From NCBI RefSeq assembly GCF_001677475.2, contig NZ_CP015229.1: a DNA stretch of 64,000 nucleotides; one strand, written 5' to 3'. The DNA comes from Escherichia coli (GTDB lineage Bacteria; Pseudomonadota; Gammaproteobacteria; Enterobacterales; Enterobacteriaceae). Under the pieces are notes generated by a model. It was not told the origin of the DNA. It saw only the letters and a program-made list of their open reading frames with translations, and did not search any database. Shown in pieces: positions 11,782-19,701 of the stretch (positions are counted from its first letter, which is position 1; the number at the start of each line of letters is the position of its first letter). A program made the translations under genes and the position numbers.

Positions 11782-12801
11782 TTACCTGAAAGCAACAGTA
11801 GCCATAGCTAACGTCGTGTCGAGCATTCGGTTAGCAAAGCCCCATTCGTTATCGCACCAGACCAACGTTTTGATCAGGTGTGCACCACTGACCCGGGTTT
11901 GGGTGCCATCGACAATGGCACTGTGCGGATCGTGGTTAAAATCTACAGAGACCAACGGCAATTCCGTATAGTCAACTATACCATGAAATGCACCTTGTGC
12001 TGCTTTTTGCAGCAACAGGTTGACTTCATTGGCTTTTACAGGTTTCTTCACCGTCACGCTTAAATCGATTGCCGTCACATTTATGGTTGGCACACGTACC
12101 GCAATCGCCTCAAAGCGATCGTTAAATTGCGGAAAAAATCGTGTGATACCGGCGGCCAGTTTAGTATCGACCGGAATGATCGACTGGCTGGCTGCCCGGG
12201 TGCGACGCAGGTCAGGATGGTATGCATCAATAACCTGTTGATCGTGCATGGCGGAGTGAATTGTGGTCACAGTGCCGGACTCAATACCGTACGCATCATC
12301 TAACAATTTGATGACGGGAATTATGCAATTCGTGGTACAGGAAGCGTTAGAAACGATGCGGTGTTCCGCACGAAGTTGATCCTGATTGACGCCGTAAACA
12401 ACGGTCGCGTCGAGATCGTTACTGCCAGGATGTGAAAAGAGCACTTTTTTAGCCCCGGCGGCAATGTGCGCTTCGCCATGCTCGCGGGAGCCATATACGC
12501 CGGTGCAGTCGAGGACTACATCAACGCCAAGTTCACGCCAGGGGAGCGATTGCAGTGAACGTTCATGCAATACGCGGATGGCGTCATCACCAACAAAAAG
12601 TTGATCGCGTTCCTGTCGTACTTCCCATGCAAAACGGCCATGGCTGGTGTCATATTTCAACAAATGCGCCATGCCCGCAGCATCCGCCAGTTCGTTGATT
12701 GCCACCACGGTAATTTCCGCCCGACGTCCGGATTCATACAAAGCACGAACCACATTACGCCCGATGCGACCGAAGCCATTTATCGCTACGCGTACGGTCA
12801 T
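11782..12801 (-). CDS. epd: Erythrose-4-phosphate dehydrogenase
   Basis: Protein starts [17 protein letters not shown] (339 aa), GAPDH fold; upstream extension not used. Confidence 0.9.
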
Positions 12802-13172
12802 AGATCTCCTGCAAGGTTTTCCCTGAGCAAATTTGCCAGACAGAGTAATCCAGCAAATCGTCCGGGGAAACCTTACCTGTCGCAAACTGCGACTGATTGG
12901 TTAATTGTCGAACATTTAATCGACTGAAACGCTTCAGCTAGGATAAGCGAAACGTGGAATAAAAGGAATGATTGTCCAGTCAAAGAAGACAATTATCTGA
13001 CTTACGTCACGTTTTCAGCCCCGCCCCTGTGGAATTTATTCCACTTTGCAGAATCACGAATAAGCGTAGCAAAATCTTTTCGTTGTGCCGTCACAAACCC
13101 TGACTTATATCAGAATATGACTGATGCAGCGTCGATATTATCCGCAATACGTCCGAGTTTCGGAGTACTCCA

Positions 13173-13604
13173 ATGATGACATTGCCCTACCCATATTCTT
13201 CCTCCGCACGCTTTTACTCGCTGCGCCTGCTCCCCGGGCAGGAAGTTCTCTCCCAATTGCGCGCCTTCACGCAGCAACAACAACTCCACGCCGCGTGGAT
13301 TGCAGGTTGTACCGGCAGTCTGACTGACGTCGCCTTACGCTATGCCGGACAAGAAAACACGGCCCTACTAAGCGGTAAGTTCGAAGTCATCGCATTGAAC
13401 GGCACGCTGGAACAGAGTGGTGAACATCTTCATCTCTGCGTTTCCGATCCACACGGCACGATGCTTGGCGGTCATATGATGCCCGGCTGTACCGTGCGGA
13501 CCACGCTTGAACTGGTGATCGGCTGCCTTGAGGAACTGGCGTTTAGCCGCCAGTCTTGCGCGCTTTCTGGTTACGACGAGTTGCATATTTCCCCCGTTAA
13601 ATAA
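13173..13604 (+). CDS. PCC/DUF296-like small protein (COG1661-like pattern)
   Basis: 143-aa ORF; sequence pattern ...LRLLPGQEV...GSLTDVALRYA...GKFEVIALNGT...HLHLCVSDPHG...GGHMMPGCTV.TTLELVI fits the PCC-domain family as recalled. Confidence 0.5.
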   Translation: MMTLPYPYSSSARFYSLRLLPGQEVLSQLRAFTQQQQLHAAWIAGCTGSLTDVALRYAGQENTALLSGKFEVIALNGTLEQSGEHLHLCVSDPHGTMLGGHMMPGCTVRTTLELVIGCLEELAFSRQSCALSGYDELHISPVK

Positions 13605-13626
13605 CTACTTTCAGAGAGGTTTTCTT

Positions 13627-14205
13627 ATGGCGCGTCGCCACTTTTCCAGTCAGGCGTTGGTGTTGATCGTTATATCTATCGCCATCAATATGATCGGCGG
13701 GCAACTGGCCAGCATGGTCAAATTACCTATATTTCTCGACTCCATCGGCACACTTATTAGCGCGGTACTGCTTGGTCCGGTGATCGGGATGCTGACCGGC
13801 TTACTGACCAATTTACTCTGGGGATTGCTAACCGACCCGATCGCCGCCGCATTTGCGCCCGTCGCGATGGTCATCGGCCTGGTCGCCGGTTGGCTGGCGC
13901 GAGCGGGTTGGTTCCGCACCCTGCCAAAAGTTGTTGTCAGCGGCGTGATTATTACGCTTGTGGTAACGGTCGTCGCTGTACCGCTGCGTACTGCGCTGTT
14001 CGGCGGTGTCACCGGTAGCGGAGCCGATTTGTTCGTTGCCTGGATGCACTCAATGGGGCAAAACCTGGTGGAGTCGGTGGCGATTACGGTGATAGGCGCG
14101 AACCTGGTCGATAAAGTTCTCACAGCGGTGATTGTCTGGCTTTTACTGCGTCAGCTGCCGATTCGCACCACGCGCCATTTTCCGGCAATGGCAGCCGTGC
14201 GCTAA
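13627..14205 (+). CDS. ECF-type transporter substrate-capture (S) component, substrate unknown
   Basis: ATG at 13627 with AGAGAGG RBS; ~192-aa small integral membrane protein with multiple hydrophobic helices, directly upstream of T and A components. Confidence 0.55.
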   Translation: MARRHFSSQALVLIVISIAINMIGGQLASMVKLPIFLDSIGTLISAVLLGPVIGMLTGLLTNLLWGLLTDPIAAAFAPVAMVIGLVAGWLARAGWFRTLPKVVVSGVIITLVVTVVAVPLRTALFGGVTGSGADLFVAWMHSMGQNLVESVAITVIGANLVDKVLTAVIVWLLLRQLPIRTTRHFPAMAAVR

Positions 14206-14913
14206 ATGCATCCGTTTACCTCATTAACGCTGTGGGCGCTGGCAGCCTGCACCACGCTAATCCTGCCCGCGCAGACCATTTTGCCGGTCTATAGCGCGGC
14301 GACCTTTCTCTGCCTTATTGCGTTAAAGTCCACGCGGCGGCGAGCAAAATATGTCGTCTGGCTGATGTTCTCGCTGGGGGCTGGACTGTGGCTGGTACAC
14401 GGTGGCTGGCTGACAGAATGGCTAAGCGGCACGCCACGCTCGCCAGAACGGTGGGCGCATGCTATTACGCTCTGGTTGCGGATTCTGGCGATTGTTTCAA
14501 CCTCGCAGTTGTGGATGCAATTCGTCCCCGTGCAACGTTTTATCCGCGCTTTGTTTGCTTCTCGCCTGCCGCCAGGCGTCGCTTATCTGTTTGCCGGGCC
14601 GTTATTGGTCGTTGAGCAGTTAAAACGGCAATTAGCGATTATTCATGAAGCGCAGCGTGCCCGCGGCGTGCCTCTGGATGAGGGCTGGTATCAACGTTTA
14701 CATGCGATGCCCGCGTTAATTATTCCGCTAACACACAATGCGCTAAACGATCTTGCTGTCCGTGGTGCGGCGCTGGATATGCGGGCATTTCGGATCCACA
14801 GCCGACGAACAACGTTGTGGGCACCAGCCGATAGCCCCCTACAACGCGTAGCGCGTTACACCATGATCTTGCTGATGCTGGCAGAATTCGGAGCGTGGAT
14901 ATGGTTACGTTAG
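14206..14913 (+). CDS. ECF transporter transmembrane (T) component, EcfT/CbiQ-like
   Basis: 235-aa polytopic membrane ORF; start codon abuts the S-component stop (TAAATG). Confidence 0.55.
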   Translation: MHPFTSLTLWALAACTTLILPAQTILPVYSAATFLCLIALKSTRRRAKYVVWLMFSLGAGLWLVHGGWLTEWLSGTPRSPERWAHAITLWLRILAIVSTSQLWMQFVPVQRFIRALFASRLPPGVAYLFAGPLLVVEQLKRQLAIIHEAQRARGVPLDEGWYQRLHAMPALIIPLTHNALNDLAVRGAALDMRAFRIHSRRTTLWAPADSPLQRVARYTMILLMLAEFGAWIWLR

Positions 14914-15578
14914 AACAGTTTCGCTATTGCCCGACAAACTCAACGCATCCTCCGTTCTGTTATGACTTTCACTATGTCAAACCGGGGATAGTCGCCATCT
15001 TTGGTGACAACGGCAGTGGCAAAAGTACGCTGGCGCAACTGATGGCGGGCTGGTATCCAGACTTTCTACCAGGAGAGATAACCGGCACGGGGACACTTCT
15101 CGGTACGCCCATTGGGCATCTCCCGCTTAATGAACAATCCGCCACCATCCAGCTCGTCCAGCAATCGCCCTATTTGCAGCTCTCCGGCTGTACCTTTAGC
15201 GTGGAAGAAGAAGTTGCCTTTGGGCCAGAAAATCTGTGTCTTGCTGAAAAAGAGATTATGGCGAGGATTGATGCCGCCCTGACTCTGAGCGAGTGCCAGC
15301 CGTTGCGCCATCGACACCCGGCAACACTCTCCGGTGGAGAGACACAGCGCGTGGTCATCGCCTGCGCTATCGCGATGCAGCCAAAACTATTAATTCTTGA
15401 TGAAGCCTTTAGCCGCCTGACGCCGCAGGCCAGCGAAATGCTGTTGCAGCGCTTACAACACTGGGCGTTTGAACGTGGTTCGCTGATTATTCTTTTTGAA
15501 CGTCATCGCACACCTTTCCTGAACTACTGCCAGCAAGCGTGGCAACTGCAAAACGGAGCGCTCCAGCCACTATGTTAA
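14895..15578 (+). CDS. ABC/ECF transporter ATPase (A component)
   Basis: Walker A GDNGSGKST, ABC signature LSGGETQR, Walker B LLILDEAF. Confidence 0.75.
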   Translation: MDMVTLEQFRYCPTNSTHPPFCYDFHYVKPGIVAIFGDNGSGKSTLAQLMAGWYPDFLPGEITGTGTLLGTPIGHLPLNEQSATIQLVQQSPYLQLSGCTFSVEEEVAFGPENLCLAEKEIMARIDAALTLSECQPLRHRHPATLSGGETQRVVIACAIAMQPKLLILDEAFSRLTPQASEMLLQRLQHWAFERGSLIILFERHRTPFLNYCQQAWQLQNGALQPLC

Positions 15579-16249
15579 CGTTAAATCAGGTAACTTATCG
15601 CTGGCCTGGCGCGGCAACGGATTGTCTTTGCGACATTTCTCTGCAACTCAAACAAGGCGAATGGCTGGCGCTGACCGGCGACAATGGCGCAGGGAAATCG
15701 ACGCTGTTACGAGTAATGGCAGGTCTTCTTACGCCCACAGCCGGTACAGTTATGCTGCAACAACAGACGATGAAAAACCTGAAAAACCGCCAGCGCGCGG
15801 CAAAGATTGGCGTACTGTTTCAGGAAGCGGAAAACCAGCTTTTTCACAGCACCGTCGCTGACGAGATCGCATTTGGTTTGAAACTGCAAAAATGCCCGGC
15901 GGATGAAATCACTCAACGTACCCATGCTGCCCTGCAATGCTGTCAGTTAGCAGACACTGCCAGCGCGCACCCGTTGGATCTGCATAGTGCGCAGCGACGG
16001 ATGGTCGCCGTCGCCTGCCTGGAAGCACTCTCTCCGCCACTATTGCTGCTGGACGAGCCGAGTCGGGATTTTGACGAAAATTGGTTGAGCGTGTTTGAAA
16101 GCTGGCTGGAGAAGTGCCGCCAGCGAGGCTCGAGCGTCGTAGCAATCAGTCATGACGCCGCATTTACCCGGCGTCATTTCTCTCGTGTGGTGCGACTGGA
16201 AGATGGTGTAATCAGGAACGTTAATCCACCAGACGATATTCACCCGTAG
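15572..16249 (+). CDS. ABC/ECF transporter ATPase (A' component)
   Basis: Walker A GDNGAGKST, Walker B LLLLDEP; ATG at 15572 overlaps the upstream stop (ATGTTAA). Confidence 0.75.
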   Translation: MLTLNQVTYRWPGAATDCLCDISLQLKQGEWLALTGDNGAGKSTLLRVMAGLLTPTAGTVMLQQQTMKNLKNRQRAAKIGVLFQEAENQLFHSTVADEIAFGLKLQKCPADEITQRTHAALQCCQLADTASAHPLDLHSAQRRMVAVACLEALSPPLLLLDEPSRDFDENWLSVFESWLEKCRQRGSSVVAISHDAAFTRRHFSRVVRLEDGVIRNVNPPDDIHP

Positions 16250-16934
16250 CGGTCATCATTAAAGTCAAATTTGCAGGCAGACTCTCTTCCAGCACCCGGC
16301 GAACATTCGGCCCGTCGGTACGGTCATAAAAAGCTTCTGCGTCTGCCAGTGATAACCCTCCCGCCAGCTTGCGCCCCACCAGTCGTTCCCGCAACGCAGT
16401 AGCTGGCGCATTGATAAAGATCGAGAAATCACAAAATTGCGCAAGCTGGCACCACTTCTCGTCGTCCAGCAACAACCAGTTTCCTTCGACGATGACGAGT
16501 GGTGCGGTAACGTGCAACGCATCTTCAACAGGATCATGCTTTTGTCGATCATACTGCGGCCACGCACAATCCCCTTCCACTACCTGGCGCAGGTTTTCCG
16601 CCAGTTTCGCTACATCGAATGTCTCTGGTGCGCCTTTGAAGGGGCGCAATTGATGCGCATCCAGCCAGCTATTGTAATGGTGAAAACCATCCATCGGGAG
16701 TGTCTGAATAGCGGGTAGTTCCGGGTCTTGTTGCGCGAGATATTCCCAGAAGGTGGTTAGGGTAGATTTACCCGTCCCCGGCGGAGCGCAAAGAAAAACC
16801 ACCGTACGCCGCTGCGGATTTACCGTCTGTAAGGCCGCCAGCATACGCAGTAGCGTTTTATGAACATTCTCAATTTCATCATCAGAGTACTGCGCCTGTA
16901 CCTTTAGTCCATTCACCGTCAGTTCGATTTTCAC
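16221..16934 (-). CDS. yggC: P-loop kinase-like protein YggC
   Basis: 237-aa ORF with P-loop FLCAPPGTGKSTL. Confidence 0.8.
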   Translation of the reverse strand: MKIELTVNGLKVQAQYSDDEIENVHKTLLRMLAALQTVNPQRRTVVFLCAPPGTGKSTLTTFWEYLAQQDPELPAIQTLPMDGFHHYNSWLDAHQLRPFKGAPETFDVAKLAENLRQVVEGDCAWPQYDRQKHDPVEDALHVTAPLVIVEGNWLLLDDEKWCQLAQFCDFSIFINAPATALRERLVGRKLAGGLSLADAEAFYDRTDGPNVRRVLEESLPANLTLMMTATGEYRLVD

Positions 16935-17440
16935 GGCGTTAATTCCTTTAAGGTTGTCGTTACTGCCAGCGTCAGCGCCGTTTTGACCATCCCGCTAAAA
17001 CGCGCCTCTGACCAGACGGCGAAATCGGCGAACTTCATCGCTTTCAACGCGTCATAGAGCGTCGCATTGCGGATTATGCTATTGACGTTGCTGATAAAAT
17101 CCCAGGTCATGTCATCGGCAAATCCGGGCATTTCATCCTGTTCGTTCAGGTAATGCCAGAACTGGGAAAAATGCGTGATATCGGCGTACAGCCATTTATC
17201 CATTTTCCCCAGCGCATAAATCAAACGCAGTGCAACATCAATATCGTCAAGCGGGCCGCTTTGGGCGAGTAACGGCTTCACTGCATATTCGACGATCTCT
17301 TCATCATTATCGACAAACAGCGACGGCAGAAACTGGCGTATCCCCTGGAGCAAAATAGAATGCGCAGTTTTCATAAATGAAAATAAATTGTCCTGTGCCT
17401 CCAGTTGCTCAAGCACATCATCTTCTGTCAGCGTCGCCAT
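16931..17440 (-). CDS. yggD: MtlR-like protein YggD
   Basis: 169-aa ORF, overlaps yggC start by 4 bp. Confidence 0.75.
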   Translation of the reverse strand: MATLTEDDVLEQLEAQDNLFSFMKTAHSILLQGIRQFLPSLFVDNDEEIVEYAVKPLLAQSGPLDDIDVALRLIYALGKMDKWLYADITHFSQFWHYLNEQDEMPGFADDMTWDFISNVNSIIRNATLYDALKAMKFADFAVWSEARFSGMVKTALTLAVTTTLKELTP

Positions 17441-17461
17441 TGGTCTTCCGATAGATCACCA

Positions 17462-18427
17462 TCAATGCAGGGAGTCTATTATATTACACGTTTGGTCCGC
17501 GCCGCCGATCAGTAATGTCTGCGTCCGCACCCCATTCGCCGTCTGTTGGATTCCGTTCACCAACTCGCCGCCCGTCACGCCCGTAGCGCTAAAGAGGATA
17601 TCGTTCCCCCTCACCAGTTCATCGAGCGAGTACACACGGTTAACGTCAACGCCCATTTCCTTGCAACGCTTGCGCTCCTGCTCTGCAATCTGCCGATTTT
17701 CCGTGTAATCCCCTTTAGCCTGACAAAAGTCAATCAGCTCGGCCTGCATATCCCCGCCTAATGCTTTAACGGCACAGGCAGAAATCACGCCTTCTGGCGC
17801 ACCGCCGATGGTGTACATCACATCGTAAGGATTATCCTGCCAGCAGGTCAGCACGCTGGCGGCGACATCGCCATCCGGCAGGGCAAAAACCTTCACGCCC
17901 AGCTGTGTTGCTTCCTCAATTGCGGCACTCAGGCGCGGTTTATCCAGCGTAACCATACGCAGCTTGTCCAGCGGTTTGCCTAACGCTTTCGCCACGTTGC
18001 GCAAGTTGTCCGCCAGAGGCATGGACAGATCAATCGCGCCCGCCGCCAGCCGATTAACAACCAGTTTTTTCATATACATATCGGGCGCGTGTAACAGGCT
18101 ATCTCGAGGGGCGAAAGCCATGACCGCCAGCGCATTGCTCTGCCCCATCGCCACCATCCGCGTGCCTTCAATGGGATCGACCGCGATATCGACTTCTGGC
18201 CCATCGCCTTTGCCCACCTCTTCGCCAATCCACAGCATCGGCGCATGGTCAATTTCTCCCTCGCCGATAACCACTCGCCCACGAAAAGCGACGTCGTTCA
18301 ACGCCTGGCGCATCGCGGTGACCGCCAGGCCGTCGATTTTGTTTTTATCGCCACATCCGGTTTGCGGCCAGGCAGCCAACGCTGCCTGTTCCGTAACGCG
18401 AAATAATGGCCACGCCAGGGACATCAT
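17462..18427 (-). CDS. yggF: Fructose-1,6-bisphosphatase class II (GlpX-like)
   Basis: 321-aa ORF with GlpX-type layout. Confidence 0.8.
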   Translation of the reverse strand: MMSLAWPLFRVTEQAALAAWPQTGCGDKNKIDGLAVTAMRQALNDVAFRGRVVIGEGEIDHAPMLWIGEEVGKGDGPEVDIAVDPIEGTRMVAMGQSNALAVMAFAPRDSLLHAPDMYMKKLVVNRLAAGAIDLSMPLADNLRNVAKALGKPLDKLRMVTLDKPRLSAAIEEATQLGVKVFALPDGDVAASVLTCWQDNPYDVMYTIGGAPEGVISACAVKALGGDMQAELIDFCQAKGDYTENRQIAEQERKRCKEMGVDVNRVYSLDELVRGNDILFSATGVTGGELVNGIQQTANGVRTQTLLIGGADQTCNIIDSLH

Positions 18428-19701
18428 TGCGTGGTCTCCCCAATATCAACGCCAAATTGTGCCAGCAGATATTTCTCGGCCTGTTCATTCCAGATGCCGT
18501 GCGTTTCCTCAACCAACCGCGCCAGCTCTTTAAACAGCGGATCGGTTTTGCCTTTTTCGGCAAAATCGGCAATGGCAGTGAGCGGCATGGTCACGCCGTT
18601 ATAAATGAGTTTTTTACCGCCAGGGATATCCGGCAGATTGAGCACGGTTTCTGGCACCGCATCCAGGCCACCAATATGGGTCACCATAAACGACGGCTGT
18701 AACTGTCCTGTGGCGCTAAGGGCAATCGCCTCTTTCATGTCGTCCGTTGAACCGCCAGATGTACCGACGACGTGCGTGCTGTTGTAATGGACGTTGTAGA
18801 AATTAAACGGCACTTTGAAGTTTTTATCCGTCGGACCGGCAAAGAAGTTCAGACAGCCATCTTCCGCCAGTAATTCGTCAGCCATCTCAACGACAGCAGG
18901 CACCGCCGCATAAACAAAAATGTCATCGAACCCGGCATCTCCTGTAAGCGCCCGCAGCATCTGGACTGGATCGCTCATCCCTTTGGTATTCACATACACC
19001 AGCTCAATGCCTTTACTAGCCGCCAGTTCCACCGGCAGCAGCTTCTGTACCTGCGCCAGGCGTTTGTCGTCGATATCGACCACCACCACCCGCGACGGTT
19101 GTATGCCACCGTTAATGGCGTAATCGATAGCGCCAATGCCCATTGGACCAGCACAGGCCAGCAGTGCAATATTGCCGCCAGGTTTGACGCCCATGCGATG
19201 CTCATAAACATATTGCGTGGTGTGATAATTGGCATGATAAGCGCCAATAATGCAGCACATAGGCTCTGCCAGCGACGCAGCAGCAAAATAAGAGCCGTGA
19301 TACGGTAATACGCAGCCCAAATTAATGGCTACCTCTGGAATAATCATATAGGTGGCGTTACCGCCAAAATATTCGTAGCTGTAGCCCGCTGAATATCCGC
19401 TTGGTAACCCCATTGCCGGTTGCAATACAAAACGCTGGCCTTTTTTATATTTGCCGGTGAGATTTTTACCCACTTCAACAATAACCCCGGCACATTCATG
19501 TCCGGTAATGACCGGATGATTTTCTAAATCGTCGGATACGCGTTTATGTTCACTACCGAGTAACGCCGCTTTCCAGGTGGATAAACAGACGCTGTCAGAA
19601 ATTACACTCACTAACAGTTCATTATCGGTAATTTCTGGCAGTTCAAATTCGCGCAGACGGACATCCCGCTTGCCATAAATAGCAGCAACTTTGGTTTTCA
19701 T
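18424..19701 (-). CDS. yggP: Zn-dependent polyol dehydrogenase-like protein
   Basis: 425-aa ORF, medium-chain dehydrogenase-like with GxGxxG region. Confidence 0.75.
   Translation of the reverse strand: MKTKVAAIYGKRDVRLREFELPEITDNELLVSVISDSVCLSTWKAALLGSEHKRVSDDLENHPVITGHECAGVIVEVGKNLTGKYKKGQRFVLQPAMGLPSGYSAGYSYEYFGGNATYMIIPEVAINLGCVLPYHGSYFAAASLAEPMCCIIGAYHANYHTTQYVYEHRMGVKPGGNIALLACAGPMGIGAIDYAINGGIQPSRVVVVDIDDKRLAQVQKLLPVELAASKGIELVYVNTKGMSDPVQMLRALTGDAGFDDIFVYAAVPAVVEMADELLAEDGCLNFFAGPTDKNFKVPFNFYNVHYNSTHVVGTSGGSTDDMKEAIALSATGQLQPSFMVTHIGGLDAVPETVLNLPDIPGGKKLIYNGVTMPLTAIADFAEKGKTDPLFKELARLVEETHGIWNEQAEKYLLAQFGVDIGETTQ

Follow-up and report, generated by a model that had tools for sequence, protein, structure and literature searches.

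Which genes lie between epd and yggC in many Escherichia coli genomes, where did they come from, and does the PCC-domain protein encoded by the first of them belong with the transporter encoded by the others? We addressed these questions in a 64,000-nt stretch of E. coli contig NZ_CP015229.1, referred to in the following as the window. We consider it likely that the locus, O-island 119 (OI-119), consists of the regulator gene lmiA and a group I energy-coupling factor (ECF) importer, that it is an ancestral module which was lost from K-12, and that it functions as an operon and by the mechanism outlined below.

The five genes between epd and yggC are O-island 119

In the list of open reading frames (ORFs) as well as in the RefSeq calls for a 97% identical E. 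coli genome, five co-directional plus-strand genes, in the order PCC-S-T-A1-A2, lie between epd and yggC (Table 1). An earlier note on this DNA, made from the letters alone, had described five such packed genes with the same first start (13173) and last stop (16249), both of which are exact, and had placed epd and yggC next to each other in K-12; the comparison with K-12 confirmed this adjacency, and the five genes are missing there. The Prokaryotic Genome Annotation Pipeline (PGAP) labels the products as a PPC domain-containing DNA-binding protein, an ECF S component, an ECF T component and two ATP-binding cassette (ABC) ATPases. Consecutive genes are spaced by 22, 0, -13 and -7 nt, and promoter-like and terminator-like matches inside the cluster are at or below chance level, a result that is uninformative about internal terminators. 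Based on these spacings and the chance-level internal matches, we infer that lmiA-S-T-A1-A2 is one operon.

The product of the first gene matches the Pfam family PCC/DUF296 (PF03479) at 92.7 bits, which agrees with the small PCC/DUF296-like protein proposed earlier. With the Salmonella structural-genomics entries 2HX0 and 2NMU this protein shares 78% identity, and its AF2 model has a pLDDT of 95.5. Across 14 diverse PCC partners, His85, His87, His101, Arg18, Arg56, Glu71, Asp92, Thr110-Thr111, Glu113, Arg126 and Glu136 are invariant.

OI-119 is a 3.12-kb island of five genes, z4267-z4271, in E. coli O157:H7 EDL933 (PMC7667037). Because the window has five genes at the same site, the same promoter elements, an exact match to the PhoP footprint and 92-98% identical proteins, we conclude that the locus is OI-119 and that its PCC gene is the lmiA orthologue. 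S, T, A1 and A2 are 95-98% identical to their counterparts in the O157:H7 genome, and LmiA is identical to LmiA of the O157:H7 strain TW14588 at 131/143 residues; with 12 amino acid differences, the window differs from OI-119 in having a divergent lmiA allele. Within the 5' lmiA region (13100-13399), there are 39 differences per 300 nt from the O157:H7 allele, as opposed to 2-21 per 300 nt elsewhere in the compared region. Because this part is far more diverged than its surroundings, the pattern suggests allelic replacement or diversifying selection on LmiA.

In enterohaemorrhagic E. coli (EHEC), PhoQ/PhoP turns on the lmiA promoter at low Mg2+, LmiA binds the LEE1 promoter of the enterocyte effacement locus (LEE) and activates ler under low Mg2+, and the conserved His triad of LmiA was proposed to be zinc-binding (PMC7667037). 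Moreover, LmiA directly activates gadA and gadBC, and indirectly represses biofilm genes (PMC11657066). Even with up to 3 mismatches allowed, the published LmiA site at LEE1, TTAAAGTCGTTTGTTAA, did not match anywhere in the window; therefore, self-regulation of LmiA through that motif is unsupported. In the papers on OI-119 (PMC7667037; PMC11657066), z4268 and z4269 are called hypothetical and the ECF transporter went unrecognised, whereas RefSeq PGAP does name ECF S and T.

The four downstream genes encode a dedicated ECF transporter

The S component matches the Pfam model ECF_trnsprt (PF12822) at 35.2 bits (cut-off 30.7), which places it in the S superfamily, and its hydropathy profile has about six hydrophobic segments. 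Its best curated match, over the full length, is the NCBIfam model NF045596 for the CD3073 family putative ECF S component (138.1 bits, E=2e-40). Because all tested S relatives, whether linked to PCC or to an inosine-uridine (IU) nucleoside hydrolase (IUNH), score 119-145 bits against this model and the equivalog cut-off is 180 bits, the S family is a sister of the CD3073 family. Moreover, a profile of the S family built from 26 relatives matches the FolT structures 5D0Y (E=9e-10) and 5D3M (E=2.5e-8).

On its own, T scores 21.1 bits against Pfam CbiQ, which is below the cut-off of 25; by contrast, a profile of 12 homologues matches the EcfT chains 4HZU_T, 4HUQ_T and 5D3M_D over the full length with E=5e-28 to 2.5e-24. 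The two coupling motifs, ARG at 152-154 and VRG at 185-187, are conserved, as in T components. Profiles were needed for the structure matches of both S and T because PDB searches with the single sequences gave nothing for S and only noise for T. Natural S-T fusion proteins occur in the S/T family.

A1 and A2 match ABC_tran at 77 bits and 97 bits, respectively, providing the two ATPase genes of a group I ECF system. The best NCBIfam models for both are ECF ATPases, in both cases below the equivalog cut-offs (A2 matches ECF_ATPase_2 at 150 bits). In total, the family and profile matches indicate that S, T, A1 and A2 make up a true group I, or dedicated, ECF transporter with a predicted import function, in line with the S, T, A and A' set proposed in the earlier note.

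Some relatives of S (P0228, P0250 and P0222) form the N-terminal membrane domain of histidine kinases that also contain DUF4118, PAS, HisKA, HATPase and receiver domains. These kinases seem to have taken up an ECF-S-like domain as a sensor.

One of the two composite ATP sites is predicted to be degenerate

A1 has Walker A, a Q-loop, an LSGGE signature, Walker B and a D-loop with the sequence SRLT; among PCC-linked relatives, its H-loop His is conserved neither in the proteobacterial ones nor in most of the others. A2 has a consensus Walker A, Walker B and H-loop, and the signature LHSAQ instead of LSGGQ; its signature position is degenerate in every relative aligned. The earlier note, the structural part of which was essentially right, had credited both ATPases with canonical motifs, and this was only half right: it holds for the LSGGE of A1, but not for the A2 signature or the A1 H-loop. 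An LSGGQ signature together with an H-loop His in both subunits, as in an ABC dimer with two consensus sites, is not found.

In an ABC dimer, the signature of one subunit, here A2, completes the ATP site of the other subunit, here A1. Because the A2 signature completes the A1 site, the A2 signature defect and the A1 H-loop defect are predicted to share one composite ATP site, leaving the other site with consensus motifs. Both ATPases are also short, and their 225 residues match only to approximately position 190-230 of the 269-279-position ECF ATPase models.

In the type strain of Escherichia albertii, NBRC 107761 (L008 9269-9952), the A1 gene is split into two ORFs while lmiA is intact. Because A1 is split, the transporter of this strain may be inactivated.

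The PCC gene is the first gene of the module across several phyla

We scored the genes directly upstream of S and on the same strand at 88 loci with usable upstream sequence. The PCC gene occupied this position at 71/88 loci, and at 2/88 loci PCC was followed by an IUNH gene and then S; an IUNH gene without PCC was found at 10/88 loci, and neither of the two genes at 5/88. The PCC-S loci span Enterobacterales, Aeromonas, Wohlfahrtiimonas, Laribacter, Rhizobiales, Paracoccus, Desulfobulbaceae, Synergistaceae and Chloroflexi, and several phyla share the gene order PCC-S-T-A-A'. Gene order thus marks the PCC gene as part of the transporter unit, with a conserved place at the head of the ECF module in these phyla.

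Two variants of this arrangement were observed. In four Synergistaceae loci (L055, L063, L069 and L070) and on a metagenome contig (L004), PCC and at least one S gene are followed by a gene for a protein of approximately 690 amino acids in which both ATPase domains are fused, and no T component was detected adjoining these loci. In seven Chloroflexi loci, a gene for a 116-amino acid DsrE/DsrF-like protein lies directly upstream of PCC, at approximately 10-13 bp where measured, and in one betaproteobacterial locus such a gene lies approximately 114 bp upstream of PCC (L056, L059, L060, L064, L066, L076, L077 and L081 altogether).

The lmiA upstream region is conserved and overlaps the epd promoter

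The 371-nt epd-lmiA intergenic region of the window has 2 differences from that of the O157:H7 genome, and the lmiA promoter elements mapped by primer extension in EHEC are present in it (Table 1). The PhoP footprint overlaps a CRP-like palindrome, and the footprint block is conserved in all 15 Enterobacteriaceae aligned as TTATCTGA-N6-TCACA-N-TTT, in which the palindrome reads TCTGA-N6-TCACA. The palindrome is centred approximately 70.5 bp upstream of the published epd start (approximately 12933), and is kept in K-12 despite the missing lmiA. The site footprinted with PhoP might be the CRP site of the divergent epd promoter, or serve as both. The epd transcript starts 132 nt before the epd ATG, from a promoter reported to be controlled by Cra and CRP (PMC2759082). 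A second conserved palindrome, over this start site, looks like a Cra/FruR operator and would fit the reported Cra control of epd-pgk-fbaA.

The 5' untranslated region (UTR) of lmiA contains two conserved inverted repeats. In an alignment of 20 Enterobacteriaceae, 95.5% of the cells are paired and 3/10 pairs have compensatory changes (TCCGG/CCGGA in Superficieibacter and CTTCG/CGAGG in Pseudescherichia), which gives modest covariation support to the repeats, be they RNA hairpins or DNA operators. These conserved regulatory features are restricted to Enterobacteriaceae proper. A search for upstream riboswitches, as advised in the earlier note, returned nothing credible: in an Rfam scan of 12700-13700 with E up to 10, the one match was at chance level and on the opposite strand (15.6 vs 88 bits).

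The module is ancestral in Enterobacteriaceae by the simplest reading

At least 80% of the region is present in 3319/5426 complete E. coli genomes (61%), whose hosts are of all kinds; with one exception, the remaining genomes match only its epd edge. In a blastn comparison, K-12 is 99.2% identical to the window up to 13022 and 94.7% identical from 16290; between these two parts, K-12 has 132 bp of unrelated sequence. We also scanned one genome per prokaryotic species for homologues, using an alignment of 8 sequences as the query, and annotated the resulting 80 loci with phmmer. The order epd-[module]-yggC was found in Escherichia albertii, Citrobacter, Superficieibacter and Phytobacter; in Kluyvera, Atlantibacter, the Klebsiella oxytoca group, Pseudescherichia and some Enterobacter, epd adjoins the module on its upstream side; and in Salmonella, for which the sequence ends before the upstream neighbour, yggC immediately follows the module. 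In total, at least nine other Enterobacteriaceae genera share the site next to epd, and their S proteins are 79-92% identical to that of the window. Because the epd-yggC synteny extends to other genera and K-12 keeps the upstream block, a deletion in K-12 is favoured over a gain in O157, and the simplest reading is that the module is ancestral to Enterobacteriaceae and was lost by deletion in K-12 and in approximately 39% of E. coli.

The right flank from yggC to yggP (16221-19000) is approximately 95% identical to K-12, whereas the left flank with pgk and epd is 99.2-99.3% identical; moreover, haplotypes with the module and K-12 haplotypes are strongly different in the C-terminal third of YggC. 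Because of this contrast between the flanks and the divergence of the YggC C terminus, the presence/absence polymorphism is linked to an old haplotype split.

The papers on OI-119 regard the island as horizontally acquired, and horizontal transfer of lmiA is stated explicitly (PMC7667037). A pathogenicity islet, horizontally acquired and peculiar to EHEC along with enteropathogenic E. coli (EPEC), would account for the absence from K-12, on account of which the locus was catalogued as an O island, and would fit the GC content at third codon positions (GC3), which is 0.56-0.67 in the module and 0.52-0.53 in epd and pgk; however, GC3 of the flanking glpX is similar to that of the module (0.65). 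The distribution across E. coli, the shared site in other genera and the conserved upstream region retained by K-12 already contradict such an islet, and no mobility genes, integrase, tRNA or flanking repeats were seen at the module borders. Restricted distribution, mobility genes and a foreign insertion site, by which a genomic island is recognised, are thus lacking, and we regard acquisition as an islet as extremely improbable.

A nucleoside-like substrate is tentatively favoured

The sole recurrent enzyme neighbour of the S family is the IUNH gene, the product of which matches the Pfam model at 329 bits. IUNH loci were found in Chloroflexi, a Bacillota metagenome-assembled genome, Bosea, Kaistia and metagenomic contigs, one of which also holds a 5'-nucleotidase and a PNP/UDP-family phosphorylase nearby. 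In Clostridioides difficile, a gene of the IU-nucleoside-hydrolase family is paired with an ECF S gene in queK-qrtT-queL for queuosine salvage (PMC11477304, PMC11130926). Because of the IUNH neighbours in sister clades and this C. difficile precedent, a nucleoside-like or otherwise ribosylated small molecule, rather than a metal, is the substrate that we tentatively favour, at somewhat less than even odds.

Other neighbours are diverse. In Laribacter, a gene of the dihydroorotate/dihydropyrimidine-dehydrogenase family starts 29 bp after A2. When 305 ORFs flanking the PCC-linked loci outside Enterobacteriaceae were clustered, no family except that of the DsrE-like gene was shared, and Pfam hits of ten immediate neighbours are heterogeneous (VTT, NMT1, DHO_dh, metallo-beta-lactamase, periplasmic binding protein, GntR, ParB-like and DJ-1). 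The literature on CD3073 and on the guessed Salmonella tags STM3071-STM3075 contained nothing relevant. A 2-thiouracil desulfurase lead, from a weak precomputed label downstream of one relative, was not reproduced by a Pfam scan and was dropped.

Two other kinds of cargo have to be weighed. Metals are the cargo of some ECF systems, for instance CbiMNQO and NikMNQO. Import of a divalent metal, Mg2+ or its substitutes Co2+, Ni2+ or Zn2+, with LmiA as the metal-sensing partner, would explain why the lmiA promoter is activated by PhoP at low Mg2+, and would suit the proposed zinc-binding His triad. However, S belongs to the ECF_trnsprt/FolT-like class, which takes organic substrates, and has no CbiM/NikM family match in Pfam or NCBIfam scans, both of which make a metal less likely; the sister clades are tied to nucleoside hydrolases and not to metal enzymes; and since the PhoP footprint resembles the epd CRP site, the link to Mg2+ may be less specific than reported. 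Metal import is thus very unlikely in our view. Most ECF S components carry vitamins, and a classical importer of folate-type or other B vitamins is suggested by the FolT structures being the best solved relatives of the S profile (E=9e-10) and by a weak match of S to the NCBIfam folate-family S model. Nevertheless, this match reaches 21 bits where the cut-off is 60, the Rfam scan revealed no vitamin riboswitch in 12700-13700, no vitamin-pathway neighbours are present in approximately 90 loci, and the neighbour that does recur is a nucleoside hydrolase, which together make a vitamin an unlikely substrate.

The PCC protein itself could primarily be a zinc-dependent enzyme or a small-molecule-binding partner for the imported substrate, with its regulation of EHEC genes being secondary or indirect. 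A conserved first gene of an ECF module across phyla would be unusual for a regulator without a recognised DNA-binding fold, many polar residues, including the three His residues, are invariant in the 14 diverse partners, and in sister loci an enzyme gene, IUNH, occupies the PCC position upstream of S. Moreover, an HxH...H triad is present in the zinc enzyme alpha-acetolactate decarboxylase. Conversely, we know of no PPC protein with a known catalytic activity. PCC and IUNH occur together in two loci and, hence, are not simple substitutes for each other; in addition, one IUNH-linked locus has a GntR-family regulator directly upstream of IUNH, at the place taken by PCC in the PCC-IUNH-S loci, which fits a regulatory role. 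Direct binding of LmiA to DNA has been reported from electrophoretic mobility shift assays, DNase footprinting, chromatin immunoprecipitation with quantitative PCR and reporter data (PMC7667037; PMC11657066). Altogether, a primarily enzymatic or substrate-binding PCC protein is rather doubtful.

Proposed mechanism

In the mechanism that we propose for lmiA and its group I importer, low Mg2+ would activate the PhoP-driven lmiA promoter and give rise to a five-gene transcript, so that the transporter would be induced as well. S would bind its substrate outside the cell and topple against the EcfT scaffold. ATP would be hydrolysed at the single consensus site, made up of Walker A, Walker B and the H-loop of A2 and LSGGE of A1, while the second site, made up of A1 Walker A and the LHSAQ of A2, would only bind ATP or have a regulatory function. 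LmiA would first have served the transporter, either by regulating it or as a partner that binds a ligand or a metal, and would later have been wired into the control of LEE and gad.

A more far-reaching proposal is that the PCC/DUF296 protein is a fifth, subunit-like partner, either a His-triad metal or ligand sensor or a cargo enzyme, of an unrecognised, phylum-spanning ECF class with nucleoside-like cargo and a single catalytic ATP site, and that virulence and acid-resistance regulation by LmiA in EHEC is a recent co-option. We regard this combination as possible, if on the doubtful side.

Several points weigh against these proposals. Deletion of z4268-z4271 leaves adherence and LEE expression unchanged (PMC7667037), and because of this no phenotype ties the transporter to the known outputs of LmiA; the EHEC papers do not address co-transcription of lmiA with the transporter genes. 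Loss of catalysis at the degenerate ATP site is deduced from motifs only. With respect to the substrate, the S score falls short of the NF045596 cut-off, no member of the S family has a known substrate, the S components of the IUNH-linked sister clades are only 42-49% identical to S of the window, and the PCC-linked proteobacterial loci are without any conserved metabolic neighbour.

Table 1. Genes and sequence elements of the lmiA locus (window positions)
Feature	Position	Strand	Description
epd	11782-12801	minus	left flank
Cra/FruR-operator-like palindrome	12924-12938		CTGAAACGCTTCAGC; conserved in 15 Enterobacteriaceae; over epd start site
CRP-like palindrome	12996-13011		TCTGA-N6-TCACG; overlaps PhoP footprint
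PhoP DNase I footprint sequence	13001-13019	+	CTTACGTCACGTTTTCAGC; exact, unique match in window; footprint from PMC7667037
Segment missing from K-12	13023-16289		comprises core promoter, five genes and last ~23 codons of the window yggC allele
lmiA -35	13046-13051	+	TTGCAG; equals element mapped by primer extension in EHEC (PMC7667037)
lmiA -10	13067-13075	+	TAGCAAAAT; equals EHEC-mapped element (PMC7667037)
lmiA transcription start	13083	+	T; 90 nt before ATG (PMC7667037)
lmiA 5' UTR inverted repeat	13100-13113	+	CTGAC-TTAT-ATCAG; 5-bp arms, conserved
lmiA 5' UTR inverted repeat	13152-13164	+	TCCGA-GTT-TCGGA; 5-bp arms, conserved; overlaps Shine-Dalgarno GGAG (13162-13165)
PCC gene (lmiA)	13173-13604	+	143 aa
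S gene	13627-14205	+	192-aa membrane protein
T gene	14206-14913	+	235-aa membrane protein
A1 gene	14901-15578	+	ABC ATPase, 225 aa
A2 gene	15572-16249	+	ABC ATPase, 225 aa
yggC	16221-16934	minus	right flank; 29-bp overlap with A2 3' end

Implications and comparison with known systems

The locus has already been described, as OI-119 with LmiA, and annotated as an ECF system. The ancestral status, the linkage of PCC and ECF genes across phyla, the association with IUNH, the degeneracy of one ATP site and the resemblance of the "PhoP box" to a CRP site are new and are computational inferences. Because K-12 is without the module, an ECF system that is intact in approximately 60% of natural E. coli as well as in Salmonella, Citrobacter and the Klebsiella oxytoca group is easily overlooked. 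LmiA matters in EHEC adherence, colonisation and acid resistance, and in the literature it figures as a virulence regulator that stands alone and was acquired horizontally; recast as the first gene of an ancient transporter module, it raises the questions of what the cargo is, whether LmiA senses this cargo, and whether the true signal is Mg2+. For such questions, K-12 is a clean null background. The practical payoff is moderate, and the interest lies mainly with those who work on LmiA or on ECF transporters.

Among known systems, the module resembles group I ECF transporters of the BioMNY, CbiMNQO and QrtTUVW type in that S adjoins its own T and two ATPase genes, T has two Arg-Gly motifs and S is FolT-like with approximately six segments. 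It differs from them in its obligatory PCC-domain first gene, and in that both ATPases are short and one ATP site is degenerate. As in queK-qrtT-queL, sister clades of the window S pair an IUNH gene with an S gene, a likeness at the level of gene pairing; unlike queK-qrtT-queL, which has a preQ1 riboswitch, the window module has neither a riboswitch match nor a hydrolase gene. To our knowledge, asymmetry of the ATP sites is not part of the usual description of ECF importers. The heterodimeric ABC transporters TM287/288, TAP1/2 and CFTR have one degenerate nucleotide-binding site. As predicted for A1 and A2, one composite site in these proteins combines a non-consensus signature from one subunit with a non-consensus H-loop from the other; in contrast to the predicted importer of the window, these proteins are exporters or channels with fused transmembrane domains.

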